A stretch of DNA of 51,422 nucleotides, from contig CBFGTA010000001.1 in NCBI GenBank assembly GCA_965651595.1, forward strand, positions 1 to 51,422, read 5' to 3'. The stretch is from an uncultured bacterium. GTDB taxonomy: Bacteria; Actinomycetota; Actinomycetes; S36-B12; UBA10799. The position numbers were made by a program, and so were the translations under genes. This document shows positions 5,306 through 29,435 of the stretch, one piece after another. How positions within the stretch are numbered: position 1 is the stretch's first letter; each line of letters begins with the position of its first letter. The notes beneath the pieces are model-generated. The model had not been told where the DNA came from, made no database searches, and saw only the letters and a list, made by a program, of their open reading frames with translations.

Positions 5306-5467
5306 GCAGACCAGCCTACGGTTTGTGCCCGTCTGCGGTACGTTCAGACCCGCCGCGGCGGTACGGCAGTGGTCAACTGTTCGGCCATCAGACGGGTCGG
5401 GCGTGCACCGACGCGGCACGGCTAGGCTGGATCCTGATTTCGGTGTTGTCGAGCGAGAGGGATCGTC

Positions 5468-6250
5468 ATGTCGCAGGTACGGGTCGGAGGACACGTTGAC
5501 CGGGACGACCCGGCGGCCGGGGCCGCCGCCATCGGAGCCGATTGCGTGCAAATATTCCTGTCGGATCCCCAGTCGTGGAAGAAGCCCGACCTGGGCGCCG
5601 ATGCGGTGGCGGTCTTGTCCGACTCCCTCCAGAACGCCGACGTCGACCTGTACATTCACGCCCCGTACGTCATCAACGTTGCCACCATGAACAATCGGAT
5701 CCGCATTCCGAGCCGCAAGCTGCTGCAGCAACACGTCAACCTGGCTGCCCAAGTCGGTGCCCGTGGCGTCGTGGTTCATGGCGGCCACGTCTCACAAGGA
5801 GACGACCCCGGAGTCGGATTCGACAACTGGCGCAAAGCCGTCGACCAACTCGACTTTGCCTGCCCGGTCTTCATCGAAAACACCGCCGGTGGCAACTTCG
5901 CCATGGCTCGGCGGCTCGAAGCACTCGAGCGGCTATGGGACTCAGTGGGCCACTCTGAGATCGGATTCTGCCTGGACACTTGCCATGCCTGGGCCGGTGG
6001 GATCGGGGTACCGGAAGTGGTCGAGCAGGTGCGAGCGATCACGGGCCGAATCGACTTGGTCCATGCCAACGATTCCGAAGGCGACTTCGATTCCGGCCGT
6101 GATCGGCACCGGAACTTTGGTGAGGGCACCCTCGGTGAATATCGAATCTTGGAGTGCATTGCGGCTGCCGCTGCACCCGTCATTTGCGAAACCCCAGCTC
6201 CAGGCATTGCTGGAGACATTGCCGCCATCCGGGAGCACTTGGGCCAGTAG
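5468..6250 (+). CDS. nfo: Deoxyribonuclease IV / AP endonuclease family 2 (TIM-barrel)
   Basis: Motifs read HAPYVINVAT, VVHGGH, ENTAGG, CLDTCHAWAGG, HANDS and GRDRHRNFGEG, which match Nfo metal-binding blocks. A GAGAGGG sequence precedes the ATG. Confidence 0.85.
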   Translation: MSQVRVGGHVDRDDPAAGAAAIGADCVQIFLSDPQSWKKPDLGADAVAVLSDSLQNADVDLYIHAPYVINVATMNNRIRIPSRKLLQQHVNLAAQVGARGVVVHGGHVSQGDDPGVGFDNWRKAVDQLDFACPVFIENTAGGNFAMARRLEALERLWDSVGHSEIGFCLDTCHAWAGGIGVPEVVEQVRAITGRIDLVHANDSEGDFDSGRDRHRNFGEGTLGEYRILECIAAAAAPVICETPAPGIAGDIAAIREHLGQ

Positions 6251-6426: not shown

Positions 6427-8097
6427 GTGAGTACGACGACTGAGAACAACCCGTTGACTGGCAAGGCCAAGTATCTGGCGTTAGCAGCCATGATGTTTGC
6501 CACGTCGATGATGTTCATCGACATGACGATCGTCTCCTTGGCAGCCCCTGACATTGAAAAAGACCTCGGCATTTCCGACCAGGCCGTTCAGTGGGTGATC
6601 AACGGATACCTGCTCGCCCTCGCCGCCACGTTCGCCTTCTGGGGCCGAGTCGCCGACGTGGTGGGCCCCAAGCGGATGGTGCTCATCGGTGTCGTCGTAT
6701 TCGCCGTGTCGTCAGCGATGTGCGGATTCACGCCAGCTGGTGCGTTCGCTGATGCATGGATCATTGGCTTCCGAGTTACCCAAGGCCTCGGTGCGGCGAT
6801 GATGTTCCCGGCCGCGCTCGCGGTCGTCGTGTCCGTGTTCGCGGTGGCCGAACGCGGCAGGGCCCTGGCTTTGTTTTTCGCCATTACTGGCGGTCTGACC
6901 GCGGTTGGGCCGATCGCTGGAGGTTACCTGACAGAGATTTCGTGGCGAACGATTTTCTGGATCAACATTCCGATCGCGATTGTGGCGCTTATCTTGACGG
7001 CGCGAATTGCCAATCCGCAGGCCCCGCGCAAGGAACCGATCGACTGGGCTGGCGCCGTGTTAGTGACGATCGGAATGGGCCTGTCGGTGCTCGGGTTCCA
7101 GAACGCGAGCACCTGGGGCTGGACGAGTGTAGCCACGCTCGGATGCATCATCGTGGGCATTGTCTTCATTGTCGGGTTCATCTTCTTCGAACGCGGTCGG
7201 GAGTACCCGCTCATCCGGATCACGATCTTCCGTGACCGGGCGTTCTTTGCCGACAACTTCGTGTTGTTCTTCTCGATGATGACCTTTGTCCCGATCTTCT
7301 TCTTCATGAGTCTCTACGCCCAGGTCGTACTGGGAGAATCGACCTCTGCCGCTGGCCTGTCGCTGATGTGGTACTTCCTCGGATTTGTGATTGCCGCCCA
7401 GGTCGGTGGGCAGCTGATCGACCAGATCGGCTCCAAGATTCCGATGTTGCTCGGCAGCCTAGTGGCGGCTGTTGGCTACGCCGGTTGGGCCGTTCAAGTA
7501 ACGGCCCTGTCAGCGAGCGCCATCGTCCCGTGGACGATCGTGGCCGGAGCGGGAATCGGCCTATTGCTCGGACCAGCCTCGACCGACGCCGTGAACCGCG
7601 CCATCAACGCCTCATACGGCGAAGTCACCGGCATCACGCAGACCCTGCGCAACTATGGGTCGGCAGTCGGAATGGCCATTCTGGGCACGCTGATGCTCAC
7701 TACCGTTTCATCAAAACTGACCACTTCACTCGTTGGGTTCGGAGTGCCAGCGGACCAGGCCGACTCGATAGTTGCTTCTATCTCCAGCCACACCTCGTCC
7801 GGCGGCGGAACGGCCGATCCAGCGACCAGCCGGATCCCCGAGGCGATGAGGGATCAGGTGCTCTCGGCCATGAAGATGGACTTTGCGCTAGCGATTCGCG
7901 CAGTCTTGATTGGCATGGTGGTCATGATGGTCGTATCAGCCGTGGTTGCCTTGATCCATCCCGGTGGCAAGGTGGAAGTGGCCGGAACCCCCGCGCCAGA
8001 CGGTGATCAGCCCAGTGCCGGTAAGCAACTCCTCAAGCGGCTTGTCATCTTCGCTGTGGTCTTTGCGGCTATCTACATCGTGATTTCTCTGCTGTAA
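6427..8097 (+). CDS. MFS transporter, DHA2 (EmrB/QacA-like, 14-TMS class)
   Basis: The 556-aa product is hydrophobic throughout. The N-terminal block FIDMTIVSLAAPDIEKDLG...QWVINGYLLALAA...GRVADVVGPKRM is typical of DHA2 drug:H+ antiporters. Confidence 0.85.
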   Translation: MSTTTENNPLTGKAKYLALAAMMFATSMMFIDMTIVSLAAPDIEKDLGISDQAVQWVINGYLLALAATFAFWGRVADVVGPKRMVLIGVVVFAVSSAMCGFTPAGAFADAWIIGFRVTQGLGAAMMFPAALAVVVSVFAVAERGRALALFFAITGGLTAVGPIAGGYLTEISWRTIFWINIPIAIVALILTARIANPQAPRKEPIDWAGAVLVTIGMGLSVLGFQNASTWGWTSVATLGCIIVGIVFIVGFIFFERGREYPLIRITIFRDRAFFADNFVLFFSMMTFVPIFFFMSLYAQVVLGESTSAAGLSLMWYFLGFVIAAQVGGQLIDQIGSKIPMLLGSLVAAVGYAGWAVQVTALSASAIVPWTIVAGAGIGLLLGPASTDAVNRAINASYGEVTGITQTLRNYGSAVGMAILGTLMLTTVSSKLTTSLVGFGVPADQADSIVASISSHTSSGGGTADPATSRIPEAMRDQVLSAMKMDFALAIRAVLIGMVVMMVVSAVVALIHPGGKVEVAGTPAPDGDQPSAGKQLLKRLVIFAVVFAAIYIVISLL

Positions 8098-8186: not shown

Positions 8187-9416
8187 CTACGTCGCCAGGT
8201 CGTTGGCGGGGGCGAGCGCACCCCGGTGGCGCCGACTGATGATGGCGAAGATGGGTACTGTGATCAAGATGAGGGCCACCGCAACGCCGGTCAGGCGCAC
8301 CCAGTTGTCATCTGGACCGGCGGCAGCAGCCGCCAGATTGGGAGCGATGAATCCCGCTATCAAGCCTGCCCCGGCAACCAGTGCCGGTAGGCGGCCGGAC
8401 GTGTCGAGGCGTGCGGCCGTTCCATAGAACACCGGGGTCATGGCGTAATACGCCAAGTTCAACAGCTGCATGCCCACCACGAACCAGGCGCCAGTGACGG
8501 CCAGTCCGACCGCAGCGTTGCCGACGGCCAGCGCTATGACGAACAACGGCAGTGCTCTGAGTCGTCGAGCGGATGAACCGGTGAACCCGGTGAAGAAGGC
8601 ACCCAGCAGGCCAGTGACTTGGGTCAGCCCCAAGACGAGGCCAGCTTGGGAAGCGCTGAGACCGGTGGCAATCCCGATGTTCTCCGCGAACGTCCAGATC
8701 GCGAAGTTGCCGACGTTGACGCACAAGATGGCCCCGAGAAATACGAGTCCGTGAATTCTGACGGGTGTGGGGGCGGTCGAGGGCACGGTTGCTTGGCGTC
8801 GGTCCCCTGTTGTCACGCACGATTCGGTGAGCGCGAGGCGAGCGGGAGACATGAGCAGCACAGCCACTGTGGCTAGCGCTGCTGCAGTGGCGGCAACCGC
8901 GAAGGGTGCCGCCGCAGCAGGAAGCGGTAGTTTGTCGTCGACCTGCGGAACGATGGCGATGAGAGTAGACCCGATGATGACGGTCGCTATCGTGGCGGCC
9001 GCGAACGCTCGAACTGGCTGTCGGGCTGTGGCGAGTGAGGCGTTGCCGGCGGCCGAGGCAGCCCCCGACGCTAGCCCAATGACGACGAGAATCACGGCCA
9101 GAGCTGAAGTGGCGTGGGTGGTGCTGGCAACCGCCCATCCGATCACCGCGATCGTCGCCCCCCCGATGCCCCACCACAGCCGCGGCACTCGCGAAATGAT
9201 GAGAGCTGATCCGATCACTCCGATCGCGAGACCTCCCTGGTTAGCGCTGATGAGGGCGCCGACCGTGCTGGTGGCTAGACCACGATCGGCCGACAGGCTG
9301 TGGGAGAGCAGGGGCGCGAAAAAGGTGGGAATGAGGCTGACGAGAAGGAGGCCGACGCATCCGGCGACAAGCCAACGGTCGCCAGCCAGCCCCGCTTCGG
9401 AGTCTGTTCGGCTCAC
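8187..9416 (-). CDS. MFS transporter (12-TMS class)
   Basis: The 409-aa product is Ala/Leu/Gly-rich and polytopic. It overlaps the upstream MFS gene by 4 nt (9413-9416). Confidence 0.7.
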   Translation of the reverse strand: MSRTDSEAGLAGDRWLVAGCVGLLLVSLIPTFFAPLLSHSLSADRGLATSTVGALISANQGGLAIGVIGSALIISRVPRLWWGIGGATIAVIGWAVASTTHATSALAVILVVIGLASGAASAAGNASLATARQPVRAFAAATIATVIIGSTLIAIVPQVDDKLPLPAAAAPFAVAATAAALATVAVLLMSPARLALTESCVTTGDRRQATVPSTAPTPVRIHGLVFLGAILCVNVGNFAIWTFAENIGIATGLSASQAGLVLGLTQVTGLLGAFFTGFTGSSARRLRALPLFVIALAVGNAAVGLAVTGAWFVVGMQLLNLAYYAMTPVFYGTAARLDTSGRLPALVAGAGLIAGFIAPNLAAAAAGPDDNWVRLTGVAVALILITVPIFAIISRRHRGALAPANDLAT

Positions 9417-11008
9417 TGAGCTGGCTCTTTGTCGCTCAGCGCGGCCAGGCGACGTAGCTCATCGTCATGCTTGGGGTAGAACACGGCAACCAGGACACCT
9501 GCCACCACGACCATGCCTAGGGCGAACGCGAATGCCCAGTTCGCTCCCTGCAGGAACGCCGTTTGAGCCCATCCCATCAGGGTCTGGGCCGGGACTTGGG
9601 GGAGTCCGGCGGCCACGCTCTCAGCACCAGCGAACGATTGGGTCATGAGTGCGACGGCCTGGTCGGACACCGATTGCCGTTCAGATTCCGGGACGGTATT
9701 CAACGAGGCCGTCAGATCGGCCGAATATTTCACGACGAGCAAAGAGCCCATCACCGACTGCATGATGGCGCCGCCGAGGTCGCGCTGGAGGTCGTTCGTT
9801 GCTGACCCCATGCCCGCCTTGTTGGGGGGAACCGCTGCCATCACTGCTCGGCTGGCTGGACTAGCGGCCATGGCGACGCCGGCACCGAGGGATGCGTACG
9901 AAATGCCGATCACCCAGTAGGGACTGTCGGCCTGCCACACGAACATCCCGACGAACCCGGCGGCGAGCAAGGCGAAGCCGATTAACAGGGTGATCCGCGA
10001 CCCGACTCGATTGATCACGATCGCCGCGACCGGCGACAGCACGACCATGGCGATCGCCGACGGCAGGATCGCCAAGCCCGCGGACAACGTCGAGTACCCC
10101 ATCACGTCCTGGAGGAACTGCTGCCCGATGAAGAACGAACCCATCAGTGATCCGAACACAATCAGGCCAGCAACTGCGGCCACCCAGAAAATGCGATTGC
10201 GGGCGATCCGGAAGTCGAACAGCGGGTTCGCTACTCGCAGCTGTCGGCGAACAAACACAACGCAGCTGGCGATCGCGATGACACCAAGTACTGCCGCGAC
10301 CGTGGCTAACCCTGGCTGCGGGGCGAAGCTGATGGCCAGAATCAAACTCGCCACGAAGATGACCGACAGGACCCCCCCGAAGTTGTCGACCGGTCGCGGG
10401 TCGCAGGTCGAGGCGGGTACTCCCACAATCACCAACACGAGAGCGATGGCAGCCAAGGGAATCGTGATGGCAAAGCCGGAGCCCCACCAGCTGAAGGTGA
10501 GTAGCCAACCGACGACGGTCGGCCCCAGGCTGGACACGCCCGCTCCGATCCCCGACCACAGCGCGATAGCGGTGACAAGTTTCTTACCGGTGTAGAGCGT
10601 GACGATGATCGACAAAGTAGTGGGGTACACCATTCCGGCAGCGATTCCGCCAACTAGCCTGCTGATGATCAGGAAATCCATGCTGGGGGCCCAGGCGGCA
10701 CAGGCCGCGGCTGGAATCGACACGATGAGGCCGATGATGAGCAGCCGACGACGGCCATGGTGGTCGCCGATTGCTCCCAAGTAGAGAACGGAACCGGCCA
10801 GGCCGAGGGTGAAGCCCACCGCTACGAGGTTCAGGCTGGCCTGACTCGCTTCGAAGTGGCGTCCAATGTCGGGTAGTGCGACGTTCGCTACCGCCAGGTT
10901 CAAGTTGGCGACGCAAGCGGCGGCGATCAAAGTGAAGAGGGCGAAGCCAGCGCGGGACCGGACAGCCGCAGTCGGCGAGTTTTCCACAAGCGCACGGTAT
11001 TCGATCAC
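9413..11008 (-). CDS. MFS transporter, DHA2 (EmrB/QacA-like)
   Basis: The 531-aa product carries NLNLAVANVALPDIGRHF...LNLVAVGFTLGLA...GDHHGRRRLL, the DHA2 signature region. It is divergent from rpsF. Confidence 0.85.
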   Translation of the reverse strand: MIEYRALVENSPTAAVRSRAGFALFTLIAAACVANLNLAVANVALPDIGRHFEASQASLNLVAVGFTLGLAGSVLYLGAIGDHHGRRRLLIIGLIVSIPAAACAAWAPSMDFLIISRLVGGIAAGMVYPTTLSIIVTLYTGKKLVTAIALWSGIGAGVSSLGPTVVGWLLTFSWWGSGFAITIPLAAIALVLVIVGVPASTCDPRPVDNFGGVLSVIFVASLILAISFAPQPGLATVAAVLGVIAIASCVVFVRRQLRVANPLFDFRIARNRIFWVAAVAGLIVFGSLMGSFFIGQQFLQDVMGYSTLSAGLAILPSAIAMVVLSPVAAIVINRVGSRITLLIGFALLAAGFVGMFVWQADSPYWVIGISYASLGAGVAMAASPASRAVMAAVPPNKAGMGSATNDLQRDLGGAIMQSVMGSLLVVKYSADLTASLNTVPESERQSVSDQAVALMTQSFAGAESVAAGLPQVPAQTLMGWAQTAFLQGANWAFAFALGMVVVAGVLVAVFYPKHDDELRRLAALSDKEPAQ

Positions 11009-15689: not shown

Positions 15690-15974
15690 GTGCGACGGAT
15701 GCTCAGTTCGAAGGAATGGGAAGCCGAGATTGGTTCCCGCATTAAGCGTGCGCGGACTCGTCAACACCTCAGCCAAACTCAGTTGGCGACACTGGCGAAT
15801 GTTTCTCGATCTGCGGTCCAAACCCTCGAATCCGGTGCCGGTAGCAGCCTTAAAACTTTCATCGCGGTCATGAAAGCTCTCAACTCAGATCCTGAACTCG
15901 ATGCCTTCTTGCAGCACGCAATTCAACCCACACCCATGGAAGTTCTGCGGCAACAACAAAGGAGGCAGTCGTGA
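15690..15974 (+). CDS. hipB: XRE-family HTH antitoxin (HipB-like)
   Basis: IGSRIKRARTRQHLSQTQLATLANVSRSAVQTLESG is a Cro/C1-type HTH. The product is small (about 94 aa). Its stop overlaps the hipA start (GTGA at 15971-15974). ATG 15699 is an alternative start. Confidence 0.85.
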   Translation: MRRMLSSKEWEAEIGSRIKRARTRQHLSQTQLATLANVSRSAVQTLESGAGSSLKTFIAVMKALNSDPELDAFLQHAIQPTPMEVLRQQQRRQS

Positions 15975-17269
15975 CGGTCGGGCCCACCATGATTCCTGCC
16001 TTAGAAGTACGCGCATGGGGTCACACGGTTGGAGCCATAACGCTCGATAACACAGGTATTGTCGAATTTGAGTACGCAGAAGACTGGGTCACGCGTCGTA
16101 TCGACCTGGCACCAAGACACCTTCCCGTCACAACGGGTCGCCAACCCACATTCCGATTTCCCGATCTTCCACGAGCCACGTTTAGAGGGCTCCCGGGAAT
16201 GCTCTCCGATTCGTTACCCGACAACTTCGGTAACAGCGTCATCAACGCATGGCTGGAAAGCCATAACATCGACAAGAACTCTTTCACCGTTCTCGACCGG
16301 CTCGCATACATCGGTGAACGCGGTTTCGGTGCACTCACCTACCATCCGGCAACCCCCATCGACACCGACACCACGAGCAGCGTCTTAGACATTGCCGCGC
16401 TCGTGACCGCGGCGCGATCTGCAATCAAGGGAACCGTCGACAACACCGAAACGCTGAGCCATCTCATCCGCGTCGGCTCATCCGCTGGCGGTGCTCGTGC
16501 GAAAGCGATCATCAACTACAACACGGAGACCGGTGAACTCACCGAAGGTCACCTCGAGCCGGAACCAGGATTCGAACCGTGGCTCATGAAACTCGATGGC
16601 GTCAACCCGAACGCGTCCGTACTCGGGCACACCGAACCGTACACACGCATCGAATACGCCTACCATCTCATGGCCATGGATGCGGGAATCATCATGAATC
16701 CATGCGAACTTATTGACGAAGGTCCACGCGCACACTTCATCACGAAACGATTCGACCGAACCCGGACTAACGATCGGGTGCATATGCAAACACTGTGCGC
16801 CTTAGACCATCTCGACTTCCGGCAACCCGCCGCCCACAGCTACGAACAACTCCTACGCCTCACCAGCGACCTCAACCCCGACCCGTACCAGCGCGGCGAA
16901 GCGTACCGACGGCTCGTGTTTAACGTCCTCGCAGTGAACCGTGACGACCACACAAAAAACACCAGCTTCCTTTACACCCCAGACGATGGCTGGCATCTCA
17001 GCCCCGCTTACGACGTGACGTACGCACACAATCCCGACGGCCTATGGACCGCCACCCACCAAATGACCATCAACAAGAAGACCGCCACCATTACCCGTGA
17101 CGATCTGCACTACGTGGGCGACAAATACGGGATACCCGGTTACCGCGACATCATCAAGACAGTGACAGCCGCCGTTGCCGACTGGGAAACATACGCACAA
17201 CAAGCAGGTGTTCCCGAATCCGTCACGAAACGCATCCGTGACGACCTCAACACCGTGCGGCTCTCGTAG
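15971..17269 (+). CDS. hipA: HipA-family serine/threonine kinase toxin (type II TA)
   Basis: The N-terminal coupling domain reads LEVRAWGHTVGAITLDNTGIVEFEY. It is followed by the GSSAGGARAKAI loop, the catalytic NRDDHTKNTSFLY motif and LSPAYDV. At 432 aa it has the typical length. Confidence 0.9.
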   Translation: MTVGPTMIPALEVRAWGHTVGAITLDNTGIVEFEYAEDWVTRRIDLAPRHLPVTTGRQPTFRFPDLPRATFRGLPGMLSDSLPDNFGNSVINAWLESHNIDKNSFTVLDRLAYIGERGFGALTYHPATPIDTDTTSSVLDIAALVTAARSAIKGTVDNTETLSHLIRVGSSAGGARAKAIINYNTETGELTEGHLEPEPGFEPWLMKLDGVNPNASVLGHTEPYTRIEYAYHLMAMDAGIIMNPCELIDEGPRAHFITKRFDRTRTNDRVHMQTLCALDHLDFRQPAAHSYEQLLRLTSDLNPDPYQRGEAYRRLVFNVLAVNRDDHTKNTSFLYTPDDGWHLSPAYDVTYAHNPDGLWTATHQMTINKKTATITRDDLHYVGDKYGIPGYRDIIKTVTAAVADWETYAQQAGVPESVTKRIRDDLNTVRLS

Positions 17270-20617: not shown

Positions 20618-21757
20618 ATGCGAGTACTCGTCATCGGTGGCGGGATAGCAGGGCTGACCCTGGCGGCTCATCTGCGCATTCGCGGGATCACGCCGGTGGT
20701 GATCGAGCGAGCACCCGAGTACGGCGATGTCGGGTTCTCGATTGGGCTGTATCCGTTCAGCGCCAACACGCTGCGCGAGATCGGGGCATACGACGAGTAC
20801 ATCCGCCAATCGAAGCCGATGCGCAACTACTTCATGCACGACCAACGAGGCGACGTGCTGCAAGAATTGTCCATGCCCGACGTGCTCTCGACTATCCCTG
20901 GTGAGATGCGGATGCTCCATAGAGCTGCCTTGGTCGAGATCCTGCTCGCCGCCGCCGGGGTCGACGTCCGCATGGGTACCACTGTTGCGAACATCGCAAC
21001 AGGCGATGACCGCGTCCGGGTCGCGTTCAGCGATGGGGACGACGGGGAGTTCGATCTTGTCGTGGGAGCCGAAGGCATGCATTCGCCAACCCGTGCCTCG
21101 CTGGTGCCGGACCAGGACACGACGAAGGACTGGGGATTCACCGCGCTCACGTGGTGGATACCGGACGACGACGCAATCGGCTCAGACGTGCATGAGTATT
21201 GGGGGGCCGCAGCCTTCTTCGGCGTCTATCCAATTCCGGGCAAGGTCATGGCGATTGCTGCCGCACCAACTCCACCAGACATTGACGAACTGTCGCAAGA
21301 CCAACTGCGCGAAATCGCCATTGAGGCAGCAAATCAGTTTTCTGATCTAGCGCAGGGAGCTGCCGCAAGGATCGGTGACCAAGACGTGTTTGCGTGGCGT
21401 ATGATCGATCAACTCAGCCCGACGTGGTCACAAGGCCGAGTTGCTGTCGTTGGTGATGCGGCTTCGGGGTTCCTTCCGACCGCTGGCGTAGGTGCATCAA
21501 ATGCGATGAAGAGTGCTGCGGTACTCGCTGACGAACTCGGCAGAGCGGATGCGGCAACGATTCCGCTCGCCCTCAAATTGTGGGAAGCGAGGGCCCGCCA
21601 GAAGGTCGAAACGAATCTGAACGCATCCAGAACGATCGGCAAGTTCACTTTCATTAAAGGCAAGTCTGCCGCCCATGTGCGCGATCTCCTCATCCGGCAT
21701 TACCCAGCAGAACGCGCGGTCAAGCAGATCCTCGACTGCAACACCCAGCCGTTCTGA
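20618..21757 (+). CDS. FAD-dependent monooxygenase (UbiH / salicylate-hydroxylase-like)
   Basis: MRVLVIGGGIAGLTLAAHLRIRGITPVVIER (GxGxxG), VVGAEGMHSPTR and VAVVGDAASGFLPTAGVGASNAM are readable. GAGGAGG lies 6 nt before ATG 20618. Confidence 0.85.
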   Translation: MRVLVIGGGIAGLTLAAHLRIRGITPVVIERAPEYGDVGFSIGLYPFSANTLREIGAYDEYIRQSKPMRNYFMHDQRGDVLQELSMPDVLSTIPGEMRMLHRAALVEILLAAAGVDVRMGTTVANIATGDDRVRVAFSDGDDGEFDLVVGAEGMHSPTRASLVPDQDTTKDWGFTALTWWIPDDDAIGSDVHEYWGAAAFFGVYPIPGKVMAIAAAPTPPDIDELSQDQLREIAIEAANQFSDLAQGAAARIGDQDVFAWRMIDQLSPTWSQGRVAVVGDAASGFLPTAGVGASNAMKSAAVLADELGRADAATIPLALKLWEARARQKVETNLNASRTIGKFTFIKGKSAAHVRDLLIRHYPAERAVKQILDCNTQPF

Positions 21758-21910
21758 CACGTACCGCAGCTAGGTCGCCAGTTGCGACACCGCACGTCGG
21801 GCGAAGGTGACGACACGAGTCGCTGCAATACAGACCTACCACGGTTCTGACGTTTGGAGTGGACCGCCTTCTTCTGAGTTGTCTAGTTGATCACCACTGC
21901 GACCCGTGTC

Positions 21911-24900
21911 ATGATTTCCCGCATGAATCTCTCTCGGGGGCGTGCTCGGCCCACCATCGTAGTTGGTGCGGTCGGAGCCCTCATGGCAGCTGCAGTTGCG
22001 CCTTTCGCCCTCAGTACTGCTCAGGCAGCCACGGTGGAGTACGGCTTCACTGGCTCGCTGCAAACGTGGTCGGTGCCGGTTGAGGTCGTCACCGCAGCCG
22101 CCACTCTGACCGGAGGGCAGGGCGCCAACAGCCCCGACACCGGGGAGGTGGGCCCAGCCGAGGGAGGACAAGGTGCGCAAGTATCAGCGGTGTTCGAAAT
22201 CCCGGCCGAAACGACTCAATTGAATGTCTATGTGGGTGGTTCAGCTAGCGGGTCTGCTGGCGGCTGGAACGGTGGTGGCGACGGCGGCTCGGGTGATTTC
22301 GCTGGCGATTCCGGCGGTGGCGGAGGGGGAGCGAGCAGCATCAGCCAAACCGATGGGACGCCGATTCTCGTTGCTGGCGGCGGTGGCGGCGCCGGAGGAT
22401 TCAACGGTGAGGGTGATGCCCCCGGTAACGGTGGTGACGCCGGAACTGGCACTGACGGTGTCGGATCTCCGGGCAGCGCCAGTCCGACCGGGGAAGCCGG
22501 TGGAGCGGCCGGCATTGTCGCCGGCGGTGCTGGCGGGGCCGGGGGAACGGCACCGTCGGACAGCAACAGCGGTGGGGGCGGCGGCGGAGGCGCGGGCTTC
22601 AACGGTGGCGGTGGCGGATCCGCGGGCGGGAGCCTGCTGTCGGCTTCCTCAAGCGGTGGCGGTGGCGGGGCAGGATCGTCTTTCGCAGCCGTCGGCACTA
22701 GCAACGTGAGCTACGAGACCGCCGGTGACCAGCCGAACGGAGGGTCAGTGCAGCTGACGTGGATCGACATGTCGCCGACCGCGCTCGGGGCCCTGGCGGT
22801 GGGATCCTCGGCTTCGATTCCTCTGTCGTCGACGTACTCTGGCGGCTCGATCACCTGGTCAGTCGTTGGCGGCCAGTTGCCGCAGGGGCTGACCCTCAAC
22901 GGCTCCGCCATTTCCGGCACGCCGATCGCGACCGAGAACTACCAGTTCACCCTGCAAGCCGCCGATCCGGTGGCAGGTTTGGTGTCTCAGTTGCAGTTCA
23001 GCGGCACCGTCACGGGCGCCCCGACGGTCACAGTTCAGCAGGCGTCATCGATCACGGCACATGCAGCAACCGGCAACGGGCAGGTCAATCCGGGCAATGA
23101 GGCGGTCACGTCGATCGAGTGCCGCGTCGCCGCCGATCCCGCCCAGGTCGCGAGCGGGAAGCGGTTCCCCGCTACGCCCTCGACGTTGACCGCATCCGAT
23201 AGCCCCACTCCCGTCACTTGCGGGATGTCGGGCCTCATTTCGAACACCGAATACCATTACGCGTTCTACGCGACCAACGCCTCCGGCACCGGCAACTCGA
23301 TCGCTGAACCATTCACGACAGCGACGCAGTTGCCGACGGTCAGCACCGAGCCTGCCCAGGCCATCACCCCCACAACCGCGATTGGTGTGGGTACGGTCAA
23401 TCCTCATCTCACCGAGGCCGACCTTTCTTGCCGAGTGGCGACGTCCATCGCCGGGATCGCTGGATCCACTGCCGTGGCAGCCAGCCCTTCCCCAACAGCC
23501 CCGGTGGATACAAAAGTGGCGGCGATCTGCGCGTTCACTGGCTTGGCTCCCGACACGACGTACTACTACCGGTTCTATGCCGAAAATGAAGCTGGCGAAA
23601 ACTCTGGCAGCGTGCAGTCGTTCACCACCGGTGCGACCGCCCCGATCGTGACCGTCGGGGCCGCCACCGACGTCGGCTACACGTCCGCGACCGGTACCGG
23701 TACCGTCACAGCCACCAACGACCCGATCGACGACGTCTATTGCCGCGTCGCTTCATCCCCCGAGACGGTGACGAGTGGGACGAGGGTCACCGCCACTCCT
23801 TCCACAGTCGACGCCGCGGCCGTGGCTGTGCCGGTCAGCTGCGGCTTCACCGGACTGACCCCCGGGACGACCTACTACTACCAAGTGTTCGCCGTCGACT
23901 CGGCCGGTACTGGAACAGGACAGTCTCCCGCAACATTCACGACGGCCCTGAGCGAGCCGGTGATCTCGGTAGGGACAGCCAGCGTGGTGAGTTCAACCTC
24001 GGCGATCGGTCACGCCACGGTTTCGACCTCCAGCCAGGCAGTGAGTTCCTTGGAGTGTCGGGTTGCCTCCAGTCCTGACACCGTCAGCAGCGGCAAGAGA
24101 TTCTCGGCAACGCCAGCCACGGTCGCGCCCCAATCGTTCGGCGTAGCCGTCGAATGCCCGCTGGCCAATCTCACTCCTAACTCCACCTACTACTACGCAG
24201 TGATCGCGGTGAGTAGCGGCCAGCACTACAGTTCTGCAGTCTCCGACGGATTCACGACCCCTGGAGCGGTGCCTACGGTGAGCGGCGCGACGCCAACTGC
24301 GGTCGGAACTACGGCAGCGCGGATCCGAGCGCGCGTCACAGCCAATAATTCCTCGGTGTCCGGGATCGAGTGCCGCATATCGACGTCTCCGTCTGACGTG
24401 GATGATGGTGTCGTTTTTCCCGCCACCCCCGCAGCAGTCCCGGCCAGCGCTGATCGCAAGCCGGTCACGTGTGCCATCGAGGGTCTGGACGTGGACACCG
24501 TCTACTACGTTCGTGCCTACGCCACCAATGCAGTGGGCACAGCTGCCGGGGCCGGGGCTAGCTTCACGACTTCCGCCAGCCCGCCGATGGTCACCACTCA
24601 GGCCCCGACAAACGTCACGTCTGCGCGGGCCACTGGCCACGCCACTGTCACCGCCACCGGTGAACCGGTAACAGACATTGGTTGCGCTTACTCCACAAAT
24701 GCTGGATCGGTGGGTCAGGGCACAGTGGTTGCCGCCAGTCCGTCGTCGGCCCAGGCCACGGCCGAGGATGTCCCGGTCGCCTGCGCATTGACTGGCCTGC
24801 AGCCCAATACGACTTATTACTATTCCGCCTTTGCTTCCGATGCCGATGGCACGGCTTGGTCGACACCCGTCGTGCCGTTTACAACGGCCGCAATCACACC

Positions 24901-25489
24901 GAGCGTCACCGGCCTGACCGCAAGTTCTATCACGGTGGTCACGGCTCAACTGACAGCAACAATTAACCCGCAGAACAGCGCGGTCACTTCGGTGTACTGC
25001 CAGGTGTCCACGTCGATCAGTTCCCTCTCGCAGGCTCCGCGCCTGGTCGCGCAGCCTGCGAGCCTTGGCCCATCGATGACCCCACAGAAGGCCGTCTGCC
25101 CCGTATCCCACTTGACGGCTGGCCAGCCGTACTTCTGGCAGTTGACGGCCGTCGGTTCAGCCGGAACCACGTCGAGCTCCCCAGCTAGCTTCACCACCGC
25201 TGGTCGTTCTGGCCCGCCGGTGGTACCGCCTCAGAAGATCAAGAAGAAGGGCAAGACCGTGCTGCTGTCTGGCCCGAGCTACAGCACCTCTGGCCAGCGA
25301 ATTGGCGTCACACTGAAAGTCACACCGAGGGGGGCCGCACCGAACAAGCCCGATTATCGGGTCGTTCGCAAGAACGGGCGCGTCGCGATCAAGACCTATG
25401 GGCATAAGCTGCGAGTCACAGTCATCTACCGAGCATCCGCCCCTGCGGGTGGATCGGGATATAAGCTGTCCCGGACCTACCGAACCTAG
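21911..25489 (+). CDS. Giant secreted multidomain protein: signal peptide, ALK/LTK-type glycine-rich domain, putative Ig (He_PIG-like) domain, 7 FN3-like repeats, basic C-terminal domain
   Basis: The signal peptide reads MISRMNLSRGRARPTIVVGAVGALMAAAVAPFALSTAQA. Residues of about 48-292 of the track ORF (nt 22028-22762) read YGFTGSLQTWSVPVEV..LTGGQG...LNVYVGGSA..GGWNGGGDGG..GGGGGGASSI...ILVAGGGGGAGG, the pattern I associate with Pfam PF12810. LPQGLTLNGSAISGTPIATENYQFTLQAAD (nt 22772-22972) is He_PIG-like. Seven units ending in FTT follow. The start is ambiguous (TTG 21887, ATG 21911, ATG 21923). Confidence 0.85.
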   Translation: MISRMNLSRGRARPTIVVGAVGALMAAAVAPFALSTAQAATVEYGFTGSLQTWSVPVEVVTAAATLTGGQGANSPDTGEVGPAEGGQGAQVSAVFEIPAETTQLNVYVGGSASGSAGGWNGGGDGGSGDFAGDSGGGGGGASSISQTDGTPILVAGGGGGAGGFNGEGDAPGNGGDAGTGTDGVGSPGSASPTGEAGGAAGIVAGGAGGAGGTAPSDSNSGGGGGGGAGFNGGGGGSAGGSLLSASSSGGGGGAGSSFAAVGTSNVSYETAGDQPNGGSVQLTWIDMSPTALGALAVGSSASIPLSSTYSGGSITWSVVGGQLPQGLTLNGSAISGTPIATENYQFTLQAADPVAGLVSQLQFSGTVTGAPTVTVQQASSITAHAATGNGQVNPGNEAVTSIECRVAADPAQVASGKRFPATPSTLTASDSPTPVTCGMSGLISNTEYHYAFYATNASGTGNSIAEPFTTATQLPTVSTEPAQAITPTTAIGVGTVNPHLTEADLSCRVATSIAGIAGSTAVAASPSPTAPVDTKVAAICAFTGLAPDTTYYYRFYAENEAGENSGSVQSFTTGATAPIVTVGAATDVGYTSATGTGTVTATNDPIDDVYCRVASSPETVTSGTRVTATPSTVDAAAVAVPVSCGFTGLTPGTTYYYQVFAVDSAGTGTGQSPATFTTALSEPVISVGTASVVSSTSAIGHATVSTSSQAVSSLECRVASSPDTVSSGKRFSATPATVAPQSFGVAVECPLANLTPNSTYYYAVIAVSSGQHYSSAVSDGFTTPGAVPTVSGATPTAVGTTAARIRARVTANNSSVSGIECRISTSPSDVDDGVVFPATPAAVPASADRKPVTCAIEGLDVDTVYYVRAYATNAVGTAAGAGASFTTSASPPMVTTQAPTNVTSARATGHATVTATGEPVTDIGCAYSTNAGSVGQGTVVAASPSSAQATAEDVPVACALTGLQPNTTYYYSAFASDADGTAWSTPVVPFTTAAITPSVTGLTASSITVVTAQLTATINPQNSAVTSVYCQVSTSISSLSQAPRLVAQPASLGPSMTPQKAVCPVSHLTAGQPYFWQLTAVGSAGTTSSSPASFTTAGRSGPPVVPPQKIKKKGKTVLLSGPSYSTSGQRIGVTLKVTPRGAAPNKPDYRVVRKNGRVAIKTYGHKLRVTVIYRASAPAGGSGYKLSRTYRT
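23018..25198 (+). repeat. Seven tandem protein-level repeats of 101-105 aa (FN3-like), each with a conserved Cys pair
   Basis: Hand-counted unit boundaries in track-ORF residues are 378-479, 480-581, 582-686, 687-791, 792-895, 896-1000 and 1001-1104. The shared pattern is P.V...A..IT...A.G.G.V........(E/Y)C(R/Q)V(A/S)......(26-29 aa)...C...GL.P.TTYYY...A.....G......FTT. The units are diverged, so there is no near-identical DNA repeat. Confidence 0.8.
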
Positions 25490-25531
25490 GCCCACATTGA
25501 TTGGTGAAGGGCAAATACTGGAGAGGTGTTG

Positions 25532-26794
25532 ATGAGCACCGCGCGGACCACTACCTGGTGGATGCTGGCCTGCCGGATCATTCTGTGGGCGGCAGTCGCC
25601 GCATCCGTTGCCTACTACGTTCATGAATCGGCCACAACCGTCATGTACGACCTGGATGTCTACATTGAAGGCGCTCGCGCGGCACTAGGGGGAGGCGATC
25701 TTTACGGTGATCGCTTCGGACCCATCGGACTTCCGTTCCTCTATACACCGATCTCGGCCGTGCTGTTCATGCCGTTCACCGTCGTCAGTACTACGTCTGC
25801 TCAGGTCGTGTGGGGGATCGTCACGCTGGCCAGCGCGCTCGGGCTAGCTGCACTGGCGGTTCGCCACTACAGCTCCTGGAGTGATACCCAGCGTTGGGCG
25901 ATTCCGATCGTGACCCTCGGTGTCCTGTGGTCAGACCCCTTCAACACTGGTTTCGGGTTCGGGCAGATCAACGTCCTGCTCGCCCTGCTGGTTGTGGCGG
26001 ACTTGACGCGATCCACTGGCCGCTTGCCGCAGGGTGTCTTGATTGGGGTCGCTGCGGCGATCAAGCTCACTCCACTGTTCCTCATCGCCTACTTCGTCGT
26101 GACTCGCCGCTATCGAGCCGCCGCCTGGTCGTCGGCGACGTTCGTTGGTGTCGGTCTCATGGGCTTCCTCGTCCTGCCTGCCCAATCGGCCACGTACTGG
26201 TCGGGACTGTTCCTCGATGCTGATCGAGTGAACGGCTCCTACCTGTCAAACCAGTCGTTTACCGCCGTTGTACTGCGAGTCGTCGAACGAGAAGGCGACG
26301 GAGGGCTGCTCGTCCTCGCCCTCACTGGCCTCCTAGCTGTGGCCGCACTGGCGTGGGCTCACTACGCCTATCCGCGACTACCCCGGGCCACGGACGCAGT
26401 CTTACTCGTGATCATTCTCCTGGTTAGCCCCCTGGCCTGGACTCACCATTGGATCACGGCACTTCCACTCGTGCTCGTCGCTGTGACATGGCCGATTTCG
26501 TCAGGCCCCAAGGCCGTGGGGTGGGCTGTCCGCTGCTCCGGGATCTTGTTTGCTGCGGTGCTTGTGACGGGTTGGGTCTGGAGAGCTCCCCACGATGACG
26601 ATCGAGAGTTTGGGTGGACGGTCAGCCAGTCCTTGGTGGGCAACAGTTACGTCCTGGTGGCGTCTTTGGTGGTAGCGCTGATCGTTGTCGGCAGTTTTTG
26701 TCGACCTGCGCGATCCCCCGATCAATCAGAGACAGGCACGACAGGCACCGGACAACCAGGCGCCGTCGAGACTGTCGCGGCGCCACCTCGGTGA
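25532..26794 (+). CDS. GT87-family (DUF2029) polyprenol-phosphate-sugar-dependent glycosyltransferase, polytopic membrane protein
   Basis: MYDLDVYIEGARAALGGGDLYGDRFGPIGLPFLYTPISAVLFMPF and GVAAAIKLTPLFLIAYFVV are the blocks typical of GT87 mannosyltransferases. There are about 10 TMS. The gene starts 42 nt after the giant gene with no intervening hairpin. GGAGAGG precedes ATG 25532; GTG 25526 is also possible. Confidence 0.8.
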   Translation: MSTARTTTWWMLACRIILWAAVAASVAYYVHESATTVMYDLDVYIEGARAALGGGDLYGDRFGPIGLPFLYTPISAVLFMPFTVVSTTSAQVVWGIVTLASALGLAALAVRHYSSWSDTQRWAIPIVTLGVLWSDPFNTGFGFGQINVLLALLVVADLTRSTGRLPQGVLIGVAAAIKLTPLFLIAYFVVTRRYRAAAWSSATFVGVGLMGFLVLPAQSATYWSGLFLDADRVNGSYLSNQSFTAVVLRVVEREGDGGLLVLALTGLLAVAALAWAHYAYPRLPRATDAVLLVIILLVSPLAWTHHWITALPLVLVAVTWPISSGPKAVGWAVRCSGILFAAVLVTGWVWRAPHDDDREFGWTVSQSLVGNSYVLVASLVVALIVVGSFCRPARSPDQSETGTTGTGQPGAVETVAAPPR

Positions 26795-28071
26795 GTAGCG
26801 CATCAGACTCTGCCGGGAACAGCCAACTGGACCGGCGGCTTGGCCTCCGCGACGCCACCGCCATCGGCCTGGGGTCGATGGTCGGGGCGGGAATCTTCTC
26901 GGCCTTCGGGCCAGCTGCGGGAGCCGCTGGCCCGCTGCTGCTCGTTGGCTTGCTCATTGCCGGGGCAGTAGCGTTCTGCAACGCCACCAGTTCCGCCCAA
27001 CTCGCTGCCCAGTATCCCGCTTCCGGCGGCACCTATGTTTACGGTCGGGAACGACTCAATCACTGGTGGGGGTTTCTGGCCGGGTGGGCATTTGTGGTCG
27101 GAAAGATCGCCAGTTGTGCGGCGATGGCTCTGACGTGCGCGGCCTATGTGTGGCCTGGGTCGGGTTCTCGCATTGTCGCGGTGGTCGTCGTGGTTGCGGT
27201 GGTCGCTGTCAACTACCTGGGCGTCACGCGCACAGCGAGCGTGAGTCGGGTTATCGCGACCGTTGTCATCGTCGGATTGCTCGTCATTGTTGCGGCAGCG
27301 TGGCTGACAGGCACGCCCACGGTGGATGTCACAGCGCCCGAGCCTGCTACAGGATCGTGGTACGGAGTGCTGCAGGCCTCGGGATTCCTGTTCTTCGCGT
27401 TCGCGGGCTACGCCCGCATCGCCACCCTAGGCGAGGAGGTGCGTCGCCCTGAGCAGACTATTCCGCGGGCCATTGTGGGAGCACTTGGCGTCGCCCTGGT
27501 CGTCTACGTGGTTGTCGGCGTCACCTTGGTGGCGTTCCTGCCTAGCACCCAGATTGCCGCATCGGGCAATCCCCTGTTCGTATTGACGGAGCAACTCGGG
27601 CTGTCCAGCCTTGGCGTGCTGGTGGTGGTGCTCGCGGCGATCGCCAGCGGGGGCGCCTTGCTGGCTCTCGTCGCTGGCGTCGGCCGGACCACCTTCGCGA
27701 TGGCTCGCGAGGGGGATCTGCCGAAACCGCTGGCTGCAGTGCACCCGCGCTTTCGAGTCCCCCATCGCGCTGAACTGCTCGTCGGCGCAGTCGTTGTCGT
27801 TCTTGTCGTGGCCACCGACCTGCGGTCCGTGATTGCCTTCTCATCTCTCGGAGTGCTGGTGTACTACGCCATCGCCAACGCTGCCGCTCTCACTCAGACA
27901 GGCGCTTACCGGCGGTATCCGCGGGCCCTGCAATGGCTCGGCCTCGCAGGCTGCGCCATGCTGGTGGCGACCCTGCCCATACCAGCATTGCTCACCGGTC
28001 TGGCAGTTCTTGCCGTTGGTCTGGGTGGACGCTGGGTCTTAGTCCACTCCCAACGTCTTCGCCGTCGGTGA
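26791..28071 (+). CDS. APC-superfamily amino acid/polyamine permease
   Basis: The GTG at 26791 overlaps the GT87 stop (GTGA). The product reads VSSASDSAGNSQLDRRLGLRDATAIGLGSMVGAGIFSAFGP..., a typical APC N-terminus, and has 12 TMS. The ORF-track upstream extension (26614-26790) lies inside the GT87 gene in another frame. Confidence 0.85.
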   Translation: MSSASDSAGNSQLDRRLGLRDATAIGLGSMVGAGIFSAFGPAAGAAGPLLLVGLLIAGAVAFCNATSSAQLAAQYPASGGTYVYGRERLNHWWGFLAGWAFVVGKIASCAAMALTCAAYVWPGSGSRIVAVVVVVAVVAVNYLGVTRTASVSRVIATVVIVGLLVIVAAAWLTGTPTVDVTAPEPATGSWYGVLQASGFLFFAFAGYARIATLGEEVRRPEQTIPRAIVGALGVALVVYVVVGVTLVAFLPSTQIAASGNPLFVLTEQLGLSSLGVLVVVLAAIASGGALLALVAGVGRTTFAMAREGDLPKPLAAVHPRFRVPHRAELLVGAVVVVLVVATDLRSVIAFSSLGVLVYYAIANAAALTQTGAYRRYPRALQWLGLAGCAMLVATLPIPALLTGLAVLAVGLGGRWVLVHSQRLRRR

Positions 28072-28704
28072 CGCGGGTACCTCGTCCTTGTCGGGGAAGG
28101 TGCCCAATATGTGGTCCGCAGCGTGATTCGTCACACCCATCCAATACTGCTCATTTCGGTAGTGGTGCAGCCGGTGAGCCCGCTCCAGGTACCGGGCATA
28201 GCGGTTCTTCGGTCGGCAGCCGGAGTGAACATAGAAGTGTGTCCACTCGTAGACGTTGCCGATCGCGGCGAGAGTCGCCAGCGCCGTCAATGCCAGGCCA
28301 GGCGTCGGAAGCACGACAAAGGCCACGACGACAGCAACCGGGACGATTACGAGCAGACTACGAGTCGGGATGAAGACCGCATCGATGACGCGAGGATCAC
28401 GGTGGTGGCGGCGATGCTCCTTGGCGAGGTGGAAGTCCAGCACCCAGCGCCCAATGCGTCGTGGCCGATAGTGGAGAACAAACGTGTGGATCAACCACTC
28501 CGTGAGCGGATGGAAACCCACCATCGCTACCACGATGACAAGGTCCCACCAGCTCCAGCCACCAACAAACAAACGAGCCGACGCCGCCACGGCCAGTCCG
28601 ATCAGTAGTATCCACGGACTGACATGGCGAAAGTAGACGGGCAAGACATCTGGGATGCGGGTGGACGAAGCGAACCGGACTGGCGCGGTGGTGGTGTCGG
28701 GCAT
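28039..28704 (-). CDS. Fatty-acid hydroxylase / sterol-desaturase superfamily membrane di-iron enzyme
   Basis: Three histidine boxes are present: HTFVLH (Hx4H), HRRHH (Hx2HH) and HRLHH (Hx2HH). Four hydrophobic segments are visible. The ATG at 28704 shares one nt with the GntR stop (TGATG) and is preceded by GAGGAGGAA. Confidence 0.8.
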   Translation of the reverse strand: MPDTTTAPVRFASSTRIPDVLPVYFRHVSPWILLIGLAVAASARLFVGGWSWWDLVIVVAMVGFHPLTEWLIHTFVLHYRPRRIGRWVLDFHLAKEHRRHHRDPRVIDAVFIPTRSLLVIVPVAVVVAFVVLPTPGLALTALATLAAIGNVYEWTHFYVHSGCRPKNRYARYLERAHRLHHYRNEQYWMGVTNHAADHILGTFPDKDEVPASPTAKTLGVD

Positions 28705-29435
28705 CAGGATTCCTCCTCGGCGGTTTCTAGGGCAGAGATCAACTTCTCCCATTCATCGTCGCTTCGTGTCAGGAGCGATCGTGCCGCTGACTCGGCGGAA
28801 CGCTCACTCCCGCGCTCGATGGCTTTGACCAGACGGGCGTGGGTGGCGTCGTCGGCGATCTCGTTTGCCACGATCTCGACGATGACGTCTTGGATCGGCG
28901 CGTAGGTAGCCCGCATGCTGTTGAACGCAAGTTGGTAGGCGATGTTGCCGCTTACCTCGACCACCGTGGACCAGAAGTCGAGGTCGCGGTCCTGTCGCTG
29001 CTGCAGTTGCTCAGCTTCGGCGAGGGCCACTTGGGCCCGCTGAATCTTCGCAACATCGGTGGGCCGGCGGTGGCGGGCAGCAAGCCGACTCGCGTCCGCC
29101 CCAATCGCTACCCGCAACTCCAAGAGCGAACGCAATACCTGCGGATTGATCCCTCCTTGTACGGAGACCAGGAGTCGAGGTAGCAACGCGAGATCGGTGG
29201 AGGCTCGAAAGTCGAGTATTCGGGTACTTTCACCCTGACGGATTTCGACGAGTCGGGATTGTGCCAAACGTTGGAGAGCTTCCCGAACCACCGCCCGCGA
29301 CACACCCAATTGTCCTGCTAGCTCCCGCTCACCCGGCAAGGCCTGGCCCGGCACGAGTTGGCCCGTCACGATTTGGTCGGCAACTTGTTCGTAGACGGCC
29401 GTGGCCGCGCTTTGTTGGTTGACAGCAGTGAACAT
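28704..29435 (-). CDS. GntR-family transcriptional regulator (FadR subfamily, FCD domain)
   Basis: VYEQVADQIVTGQLVPGQALPGERELAGQLGVSRAVVREALQRL is a GntR winged HTH. The C-terminal domain is helical. Confidence 0.9.
   Translation of the reverse strand: MFTAVNQQSAATAVYEQVADQIVTGQLVPGQALPGERELAGQLGVSRAVVREALQRLAQSRLVEIRQGESTRILDFRASTDLALLPRLLVSVQGGINPQVLRSLLELRVAIGADASRLAARHRRPTDVAKIQRAQVALAEAEQLQQRQDRDLDFWSTVVEVSGNIAYQLAFNSMRATYAPIQDVIVEIVANEIADDATHARLVKAIERGSERSAESAARSLLTRSDDEWEKLISALETAEEES

Follow-up and report, generated by a model that had tools for sequence, protein, structure and literature searches.

An ALK/LTK-type glycine-rich domain in a predicted adhesin-like surface protein of an uncultured actinobacterium, and its gene neighbourhood

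Among described proteins, the closest counterparts of the domain studied here are the TNF-like plus glycine-rich domain (GRD) of ALK and LTK (PF12810; PDB 7nx1, 7nx4, 7n00, 7lrz and 7ls0) and the tips of certain phages. The tip proteins of cyanophage Pam3 (gp24, 7ypx) and mycobacteriophage Bxb1 (9d93) belong to the same fold class, and gp38 of phage S16 is also related. [quoted passage not shown] For the enzyme encoded next to our protein, the closest described system is PimE (PDB 9dm5), a mycobacterial alpha-1,2-mannosyltransferase that depends on polyprenyl-phosphate-mannose (PPM). The locus that brings the two together lies in an uncultured actinobacterium (assembly GCA_965651595.1, contig CBFGTA010000001.1, positions 1 to 51,422; this whole stretch of 51,422 nucleotides is called the window below). 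It comprises, all on the + strand, a gene for a giant secreted multidomain protein (21911..25489, 1192 amino acids, ATG 21911 to TAG 25489), a gene for a GT87 polytopic GT-C mannosyltransferase (25532..26794, 420 amino acids) and a gene for an APC-superfamily amino-acid permease (26791..28071, 426 amino acids).

A preliminary description of this DNA had presented the three genes as a candidate cell-surface module, and the three open reading frames (ORFs) were recovered at the coordinates and in the arrangement claimed there. Our analyses placed an ALK/LTK-type GRD at the N-terminus of the giant protein, and we regard it as probable, if well short of certain, that an adhesin-like surface fibre is encoded beside a general envelope mannosyltransferase, with the permease unrelated and the adjacency of the genes incidental.

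The glycine-rich domain

Profile and hidden Markov model (HMM) searches, AlphaFold and Foldseek placed the GRD at approximately residues 40-290 of the giant protein (22028..22780, + strand), a segment with 32% glycine and a pI of 4.05. Its glycine-rich motifs follow the same order as those of ALK and LTK, to which it is only 17-21% identical. Pfam PF12810 gave no match to the full protein or to the excised domain at E ≤ 10, nor to the window domain as member 1 of the family alignment (A1) at E ≤ 1, and the missing match may be due to the composition filters and corrections of HMMER; a phmmer search of the domain against PDB sequences was likewise without a match. Family membership, however, is supported by the relatives. 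The domain aligns over its full length with those of eight other proteins (P0002-P0004, P0011, P0020 and P0028-P0030), and PF12810 is matched by 13 of the 14 aligned domains (best E 9e-19), the window copy being the exception. The motifs common to the window GRD and these relatives extend beyond glycine (F.YTG..Q.W.VP, V.VGG.G, GGWNGGG, GGGGGASDIR and VAGGGGG). With an HMM built from the 13 PF12810-positive domains, the window sequence left out, the window GRD scored 115.7 bits, while 1000 composition-matched shuffles of it reached at most -11.3 bits; without the null2 composition correction, the corresponding values were 211 bits and at most 124 bits. In addition, the A1 profile, which combines the window sequence with its 13 relatives, matched eight distinct ALK and LTK chain sequences, from human ectodomains, in the PDB (E 2.8e-6 to 9.2e-6), and these matches span profile positions 11-238 of 246, almost the full length of the domain.

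The predicted structure points in the same direction. An AlphaFold (AF2) model of the GRD on the family alignment, with a predicted local distance difference test (pLDDT) score of 81 and a predicted TM-score (pTM) of 0.82, forms beta strands from the N- and C-terminal segments and has glycine-rich stretches that receive no DSSP class, in agreement with a TNF-like beta-sandwich that carries a glycine-rich, putatively polyglycine-II lattice. When this model was compared with the PDB by Foldseek, ranks 1-15 were all ALK or LTK (probability 1.00, E down to 7e-7; TM-score normalised to the query, TMq, 0.44-0.48), followed by the Bxb1 tail tip 9d93 (E 1e-4) and the Pam3 fibre 7ypx (E 1e-2). Among predicted viral structures (BFVD), there were 129 matches at E ≤ 1e-3, with TMq up to 0.69, including virion structural and tail proteins. 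Many of the phage and giant-virus proteins with this fold are automatically named 'receptor protein-tyrosine kinase', and others virion structural, tail collar or minor tail protein; as the family takes its name from ALK, the label of kinase is apparently an artefact of annotation. On profile and predicted fold, we assign the window GRD to the ALK/LTK-type (PF12810) family. The preliminary description had called the domain ALK/LTK-like and had looked to structure prediction for an ALK-like architecture; both the family and the fold hold up, and only the direct PF12810 match is missing.

Unlike ALK and LTK, the window protein has no epidermal growth factor (EGF)-like domain, transmembrane (TM) segment or kinase, and its N-terminal GRD is followed by a bacterial Ig/FN3 stalk. 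We know of no ALKAL-type ligand in bacteria. If the GRD is a distal tip that binds, its best functional analogues are the receptor-binding tips of phages, but they too differ in construction. In the phage proteins, the N-terminal part is helical or docks onto the baseplate, trimers are formed and chaperones are required. The window protein, in contrast, carries a signal peptide, its gene lies in a cellular context, and its order is that of an N-terminal GRD with the long stalk C-terminal to it. The lowest-confidence stretch of the GRD model (residues ~141-180) coincides with the region where indels are most frequent in the family alignment, which would fit a variable tip. It had been held that no function of this domain was known in bacteria; in our literature search, a function was reported for phage tail fibres only, where it is receptor binding (PMC9608196), and none was found for a cellular bacterial protein.

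By profile, the GRD family extends to 26,857 clusters at 50% identity, 16,474 of them at E ≤ 1e-10, and many of the giant proteins in this family carry several to many GRD copies. A metagenome scan with the family alignment, in which the patterns used were glycine-rich, confirmed none of 600 matched stretches.

Export, stalk and C-terminal domain of the giant protein

The start of the giant gene was taken as ATG 21911, with ATG 21923 and TTG 21887 as alternatives, and no obvious Shine-Dalgarno site was found at any of these candidate starts. From ATG 21911, residues 1-39 (21911..22027, + strand) read as a Sec-type signal peptide with a basic n-region, a hydrophobic core at residues 12-30, which is the sole hydrophobic 19-residue window in the protein, and an AQA|A cleavage motif. 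Together, these features identify the leader as a plain Sec signal peptide; inspection of the leader revealed neither a twin-arginine motif nor a lipobox. The canonical leader is obtained from either ATG 21911 or ATG 21923. The database gene call for this protein (P0001, 1168 amino acids) begins at Met25, which cuts away the n-region and half of the hydrophobic core (21911-21982). No LPXTG-like motif, C-terminal hydrophobic or TM segment, or lipobox was found in the protein, which therefore qualifies neither as a sortase substrate nor as a lipoprotein. Judged from its sequence, the giant protein is extracellular, in line with the exported protein of about 1190 residues that had been proposed.

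Behind the GRD lies a He_PIG (PF05345) Ig-like domain (residues ~291-370; 22781..23020, + strand), detected in the excised segment with E 2.3e-10 and 41.2 bits against a cut-off of 24. It is followed by seven FN3-like repeats (residues 371-1096; 23021..25198, + strand) of 100-105 amino acids each, which are 27-46% identical to one another, contain two conserved cysteines per repeat and are separated by short linkers rich in Thr, Ser, Pro and Ala. The repeats matched PhoD_N (77.8 bits), Pur_ac_phosph_N (77.3 bits) and fn3 (63.9 bits), all above the respective cut-offs, and aligned as a seven-fold repeat. The protein ends in an orphan basic domain (residues 1097-1192; 25199..25486, + strand) of 96 amino acids, with 21 Lys and Arg, 1 Asp or Glu and a pI of 11.5; the body of the protein is acidic. 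The Ig domain, the number of repeats and the Lys/Arg-rich end thus agree with what had been read from the sequence before. A homology search with the C-terminal 97 residues found no homologues; when they were compared by BLASTP with the P0003 and P0002 tails, no significant similarity emerged, and phmmer against all proteins recovered returned a single, reciprocal weak match to the P0003 tail (E~0.3). An AlphaFold model of the C-terminal domain on a two-sequence alignment was all-beta at low confidence (pLDDT 44) and unfit for a fold search. Domain scans of the giant protein detected no S-layer or S-layer homology (SLH)-type domain.

Relatives were sought by a word-indexed search of 5.8 billion clusters, of which the best 8000 candidates were scored; the glycine-rich words may have hidden true orthologues. 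Within this set, the nearest relatives were P0002-P0004 (796-845 amino acids, 32-34% identity, all PF12810-positive), which share the window architecture of signal peptide, GRD, He_PIG-like Ig domain, FN3-like repeats with cysteine pairs and a tail, with three or four repeats in place of seven. P0020 (1137 amino acids) resembles the window protein in its GRD, He_PIG and FN3 domains, and these four were the only family-level relatives found. The C-terminal tails are less constant: that of P0003 is weakly similar to the window tail, to which the P0002 and P0004 tails show no relationship.

These features suggest how the protein may work. After Sec export, it would act as an adhesin-like surface fibre of the actinobacterium, in which the N-terminal TNF-like/GRD unit would be the distal ligand-binding tip, by analogy with ALK/LTK and phage fibres. 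The He_PIG Ig domain and the seven FN3-like repeats, which would be disulphide-bonded, may serve as an acidic stalk. Retention on the anionic cell envelope would probably be non-covalent and due to the basic C-terminal domain.

The GT87 enzyme, the permease and the evidence for a module

The product of the downstream gene matched PF09594 (GT87) over the whole model, with 144 bits against a cut-off of 25, and contains about 10 hydrophobic segments; the HMM match and the polytopic GT-C topology place it in CAZy family GT87, as previously suggested. It aligned with M. abscessus PimE (9dm5, E 4e-29), with which it shares PF09594, the number of hydrophobic segments and the activity residues. PimE D58, Y62, Y92, Q163, K195, W319, H321 and H322, which serve as the catalytic base or as activity or donor-binding residues (PMC12041525), correspond to D40, Y44, Y71, Q145, K178, W303, H305 and H306 of the window enzyme. 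Since these residues are kept, it is very likely an active mannosyltransferase that uses PPM. On the acceptor side, in contrast, D160 and Y161, which bind acceptor mannoses in M. abscessus PimE (PMC12041525), are replaced by G142 and F143, and this replacement suggests an acceptor other than Ac1PIM4. The enzyme also stays below the cut-off of the NCBIfam PimE equivalog (NF009915; 173 bits against 413), and its gene lies near dnaB, outside the phosphatidylinositol mannoside/lipomannan (PIM/LM) gene context. No close genome was found for it among species-representative genomes, in which the best relative was 36% identical.

The proposal of a module had started from the premise that characterised GT87 enzymes act on lipoglycans and not on proteins, which is outdated. 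According to a 2025 review, PimE extends O-mannose chains on mycobacterial mannoproteins and other actinobacterial GT87 members appear to do likewise, while the first mannose is added by the GT39 enzyme Pmt and not by GT87 (PMC12757957). As PimE elongates protein O-mannose, activity of a GT87 enzyme on a secreted protein would be no novelty in kind. The linkers between the FN3-like repeats, rich in Thr, Ser, Pro and Ala, could well be among the substrates of the window enzyme, which would then act as a general enzyme.

The junctions between the genes are tight. The spacer between the giant and GT87 genes (25490..25531, + strand) is 42 nt long and contains a Shine-Dalgarno-like GGAGAGG (25520-25526) 5 nt before the GT87 ATG at 25532; neither a terminator-like site nor an unusual hairpin (z -0.36) was found in it. 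The permease GTG (26791-26793) overlaps the GT87 TGA (26792-26794), which sets the permease start at 26791, and the permease homologues, which align from residues 1-13, back this start. The hairpin-free 42-nt spacing and the start of the permease on the GT87 stop codon (GTGA) had both been described correctly. No sigma-70 promoter was found in 21000-29000, in a scan that is uninformative for Actinomycetota. The spacing of the three genes is compatible with co-transcription, which is possible. The permease itself belongs to the APC superfamily of amino-acid permeases (AA_permease_2 PF13520, 144 bits, E 6e-42; PF00324, 131 bits), with nine hydrophobic windows by a simple scan in a family whose norm is about 12 TM segments, and it reached no NCBIfam equivalog cut-off that would name a substrate.

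If the three genes formed a functional module, they would be expected to recur together, and the comparable loci that we recovered contain no instance of giant gene, GT87 and permease side by side. For P0002 (locus L001) and P0004 (L004), the next gene is on the opposite strand, with a weak collagen-like match in the former and, in the latter, cut short and without a Pfam match. P0020 (L013) has a MoxR-like gene on one side and a VWA/Rv0959-like gene on the other, and downstream of P0015 (L014/L015) come a toxin-antitoxin pair and transposases. No GT87 gene was found near any of these proteins of the same or similar architecture; the contigs of P0003 stop ~90 nt beyond its gene, too early to reveal downstream neighbours. 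On the L013 contig (1-6500), the MoxR-like AAA_3 ATPase gene, P0020 and the gene with VWA_2, Mb0984_helical and Rv0959_3rd domains are on one strand, and these neighbours are a different possible partnership for the GRD-He_PIG-FN3 family.

The view from the GT87 gene is similar. Neither a giant gene nor a permease lies beside its closest relatives P0033, P0034, P0036 and P0039. The closest of them, P0033 (45% identity), is flanked by an alanine dehydrogenase gene and another GT87 gene, and P0039 is in yet another context. P0034 and P0036 are located, as in the window, in a syntenic region that runs from rpsF-ssb-rpsR-rplI-dnaB to FUSC. Two metagenomic contigs (L009 and L010) are syntenic with the window over a second GT87 gene, an Ala-racemase-N-like gene, FemAB, rpsF-ssb-rpsR-rplI-dnaB, GT87 and FUSC, with identities of 74% for DnaB, 76% for RpsF, 57% for FemAB, 54% for the second GT87, 39% for FUSC and 38% for the GT87 in question. 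In both contigs, the latter lies between dnaB and FUSC without an adjacent giant gene or permease. The dnaB-FUSC interval is ~5.6 kb long in L009/L010 and 14 kb in the window, where it also contains hipBA, two FAD monooxygenase genes, a fatty-acid hydroxylase gene and a GntR regulator gene, which marks it as a variable region. For the permease, 80 metagenomic loci with homologues 53-62% identical were collected, 50 of them with at least 1.3 kb of upstream sequence, and a GT87 or giant-like gene was present in none of the 80. The permease is thus a member of a widespread soil-bacterial family without a link to GT87.

Taken together, the comparison does not support the proposed module: giant-like genes occur without GT87, GT87 relatives occur without giant gene or permease, and the permease homologues occur without either. 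The preliminary description itself had named as contrary to its proposal the finding of the GT87 orthologue in a conserved setting from which the giant gene is missing, and this was observed for P0034 and P0036 in the dnaB-FUSC interval. As far as the loci compared can tell, the adjacency of the three genes is most likely lineage-specific and incidental. The positional orthologue kept in the dnaB-FUSC interval of relatives argues that the GT87 is a general envelope enzyme and not a dedicated partner; with PPM as donor, its substrates may be many secreted proteins or glycolipids, the giant protein possibly among them.

Alternative explanations, flanking genes and significance

Several points weigh against the explanation that we prefer, an adhesin-like fibre beside an unrelated general mannosyltransferase. 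The 42-nt gap without a terminator and the GTGA overlap have the look of an operon, and a lineage-specific functional link between the giant gene, GT87 and permease may exist. The samples are small: there were five proteins of similar architecture with three informative contexts (L001/L004, L013 and L014/L015) and four close GT87 contexts, and many contigs are short. The GT87 in L009/L010 is only 38% identical to that in the window and has the opposite orientation relative to dnaB, so that the orthology is positional and not proven. The TM-scores of the GRD model to ALK/LTK are moderate (0.45-0.48), and the part in retention that we propose for the C-terminal domain is deduced only from its charge.

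Each of the other explanations accounts for part of these data. A dedicated operon, in which the GT87 would specifically mannosylate the Thr/Ser-rich giant protein or anchor it to mannan or lipoglycan, would agree with the single strand, the close spacing with its Shine-Dalgarno site, the linkers between the repeats, the acceptor-site residues unlike those of PimE and the precedent of PimE on mannoproteins (PMC12757957). The absence of co-occurrence in any comparable locus, the conserved chromosomal interval in which the closest GT87 relatives lie without the other two genes, the 80 permease loci in which GT87 is never nearby, and the GT39 Pmt origin of the first mannose in the known pathway (PMC12757957) make such a dedication distinctly unlikely. 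Quite improbable, too, is the variant in which the three genes are a recently assembled operon and the GT87, with its non-PimE acceptor pocket, mannosylates the fibre linkers or an envelope polymer bound by the C-terminal domain. If it were true, the display of an ALK-type glycine-rich adhesin would be coupled to a dedicated GT-C mannosyltransferase, and the locus would be a first entry point to the binding partner of a GRD in a cellular bacterial protein. The giant protein might instead be released and serve outside the cell in binding or as part of a matrix (biofilm, S-layer-like or substrate-binding), where its basic tail would attach to an external anionic polymer. The missing sortase motif, lipobox and TM anchor, the orphan C-terminal domain without a confident fold, and the acidic body with its basic tail would all suit this possibility, against which there is nothing direct. 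Long Ig/FN3 stalks with a distal binding domain are, however, typical of cell-attached adhesins, and the domain scans detected no S-layer or SLH-type domain; we consider a released protein unlikely.

The remaining two explanations are more distant. The C-terminal ~100-130 residues differ between the window protein, P0003 and P0002/P0004, and the GRD protein P0030 also has RHS-type domains, as might be expected of a polymorphic-toxin-like effector in which a conserved delivery body (GRD and repeats) carries a variable C-terminal toxin domain. However, no known toxin domain was found in the domain scans, the next gene encodes a 10-TM glycosyltransferase and not a small immunity-like protein, and in place of type VII secretion system (T7SS) or LXG signals there is a plain Sec signal peptide, which makes an effector very improbable. 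That Foldseek matched the GRD model with the tail tip of Bxb1, the fibre of Pam3 and 129 viral proteins could point to the remnant of a prophage or tailocin tail fibre, and this is exceedingly improbable given the Sec signal peptide of the giant protein, its neighbours (FAD monooxygenases, GT87 and permease, without phage genes) and a G + C content at third codon positions (GC3) equal to that of the host genes. The window was also found to be free of tRNA genes, and hence no tRNA-linked integration site is visible. A prophage origin of the giant gene was rejected, as neither phage genes nor tRNA genes are nearby. Recent horizontal transfer was likewise rejected on composition: the GC3 of the giant gene (71.8%) is that of the neighbouring genes, and there is thus no compositional sign of recent import.

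Other features of the window concern its flanks. To the left of rpsF-ssb-rpsR-rplI-dnaB, the second GT87 gene (1420-2895), an Ala_racemase_N-like gene (2838-4229) and a FemAB-family gene (4118-5788), all on the - strand, form a cluster that is kept at 54-57% identity in L009 (7130-10492) and L010 and looks like a conserved cell-envelope gene set of the lineage. Three successive major facilitator superfamily (MFS) transporter genes (6427-8097, + strand; 8187-9416 and 9413-11008, - strand) separate FemAB from rpsF as an insertion; the place is taken by an AP-endonuclease-family gene in L009 and L010. A hipBA-type toxin-antitoxin pair (15690-17269, + strand), consisting of a 94-amino-acid helix-turn-helix ORF (15690-15974) and a HipA kinase gene (15971-17269) with a 4-nt overlap, lies in the lowest-GC stretch of the window (58%), within the variable dnaB-FUSC interval. 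At the other end of the locus, the permease gene (+ strand, stop at 28071) convergently overlaps a fatty-acid-hydroxylase-family ORF (28039-28752, - strand) by 33 nt (28039-28071), and this ORF, with starts and stops as predicted, also overlaps a GntR/FCD gene (28704-29435).

For the enzyme, these results mean that the claim of a dedicated GT87/permease module fails the comparative test and that the GT87 is typical of the PimE family, with a gene whose place in the chromosome is conserved. For the protein, they mean membership in a very large known family: ALK/LTK-type GRDs are very common outside animals, and the giant protein is one member among thousands, with a modular architecture that is uncommon but unremarkable. 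Its gene is nevertheless a clean and compact example, with a single GRD tip, an Ig/FN3 stalk and a plain signal peptide, and could be used to test binding by a bacterial GRD.

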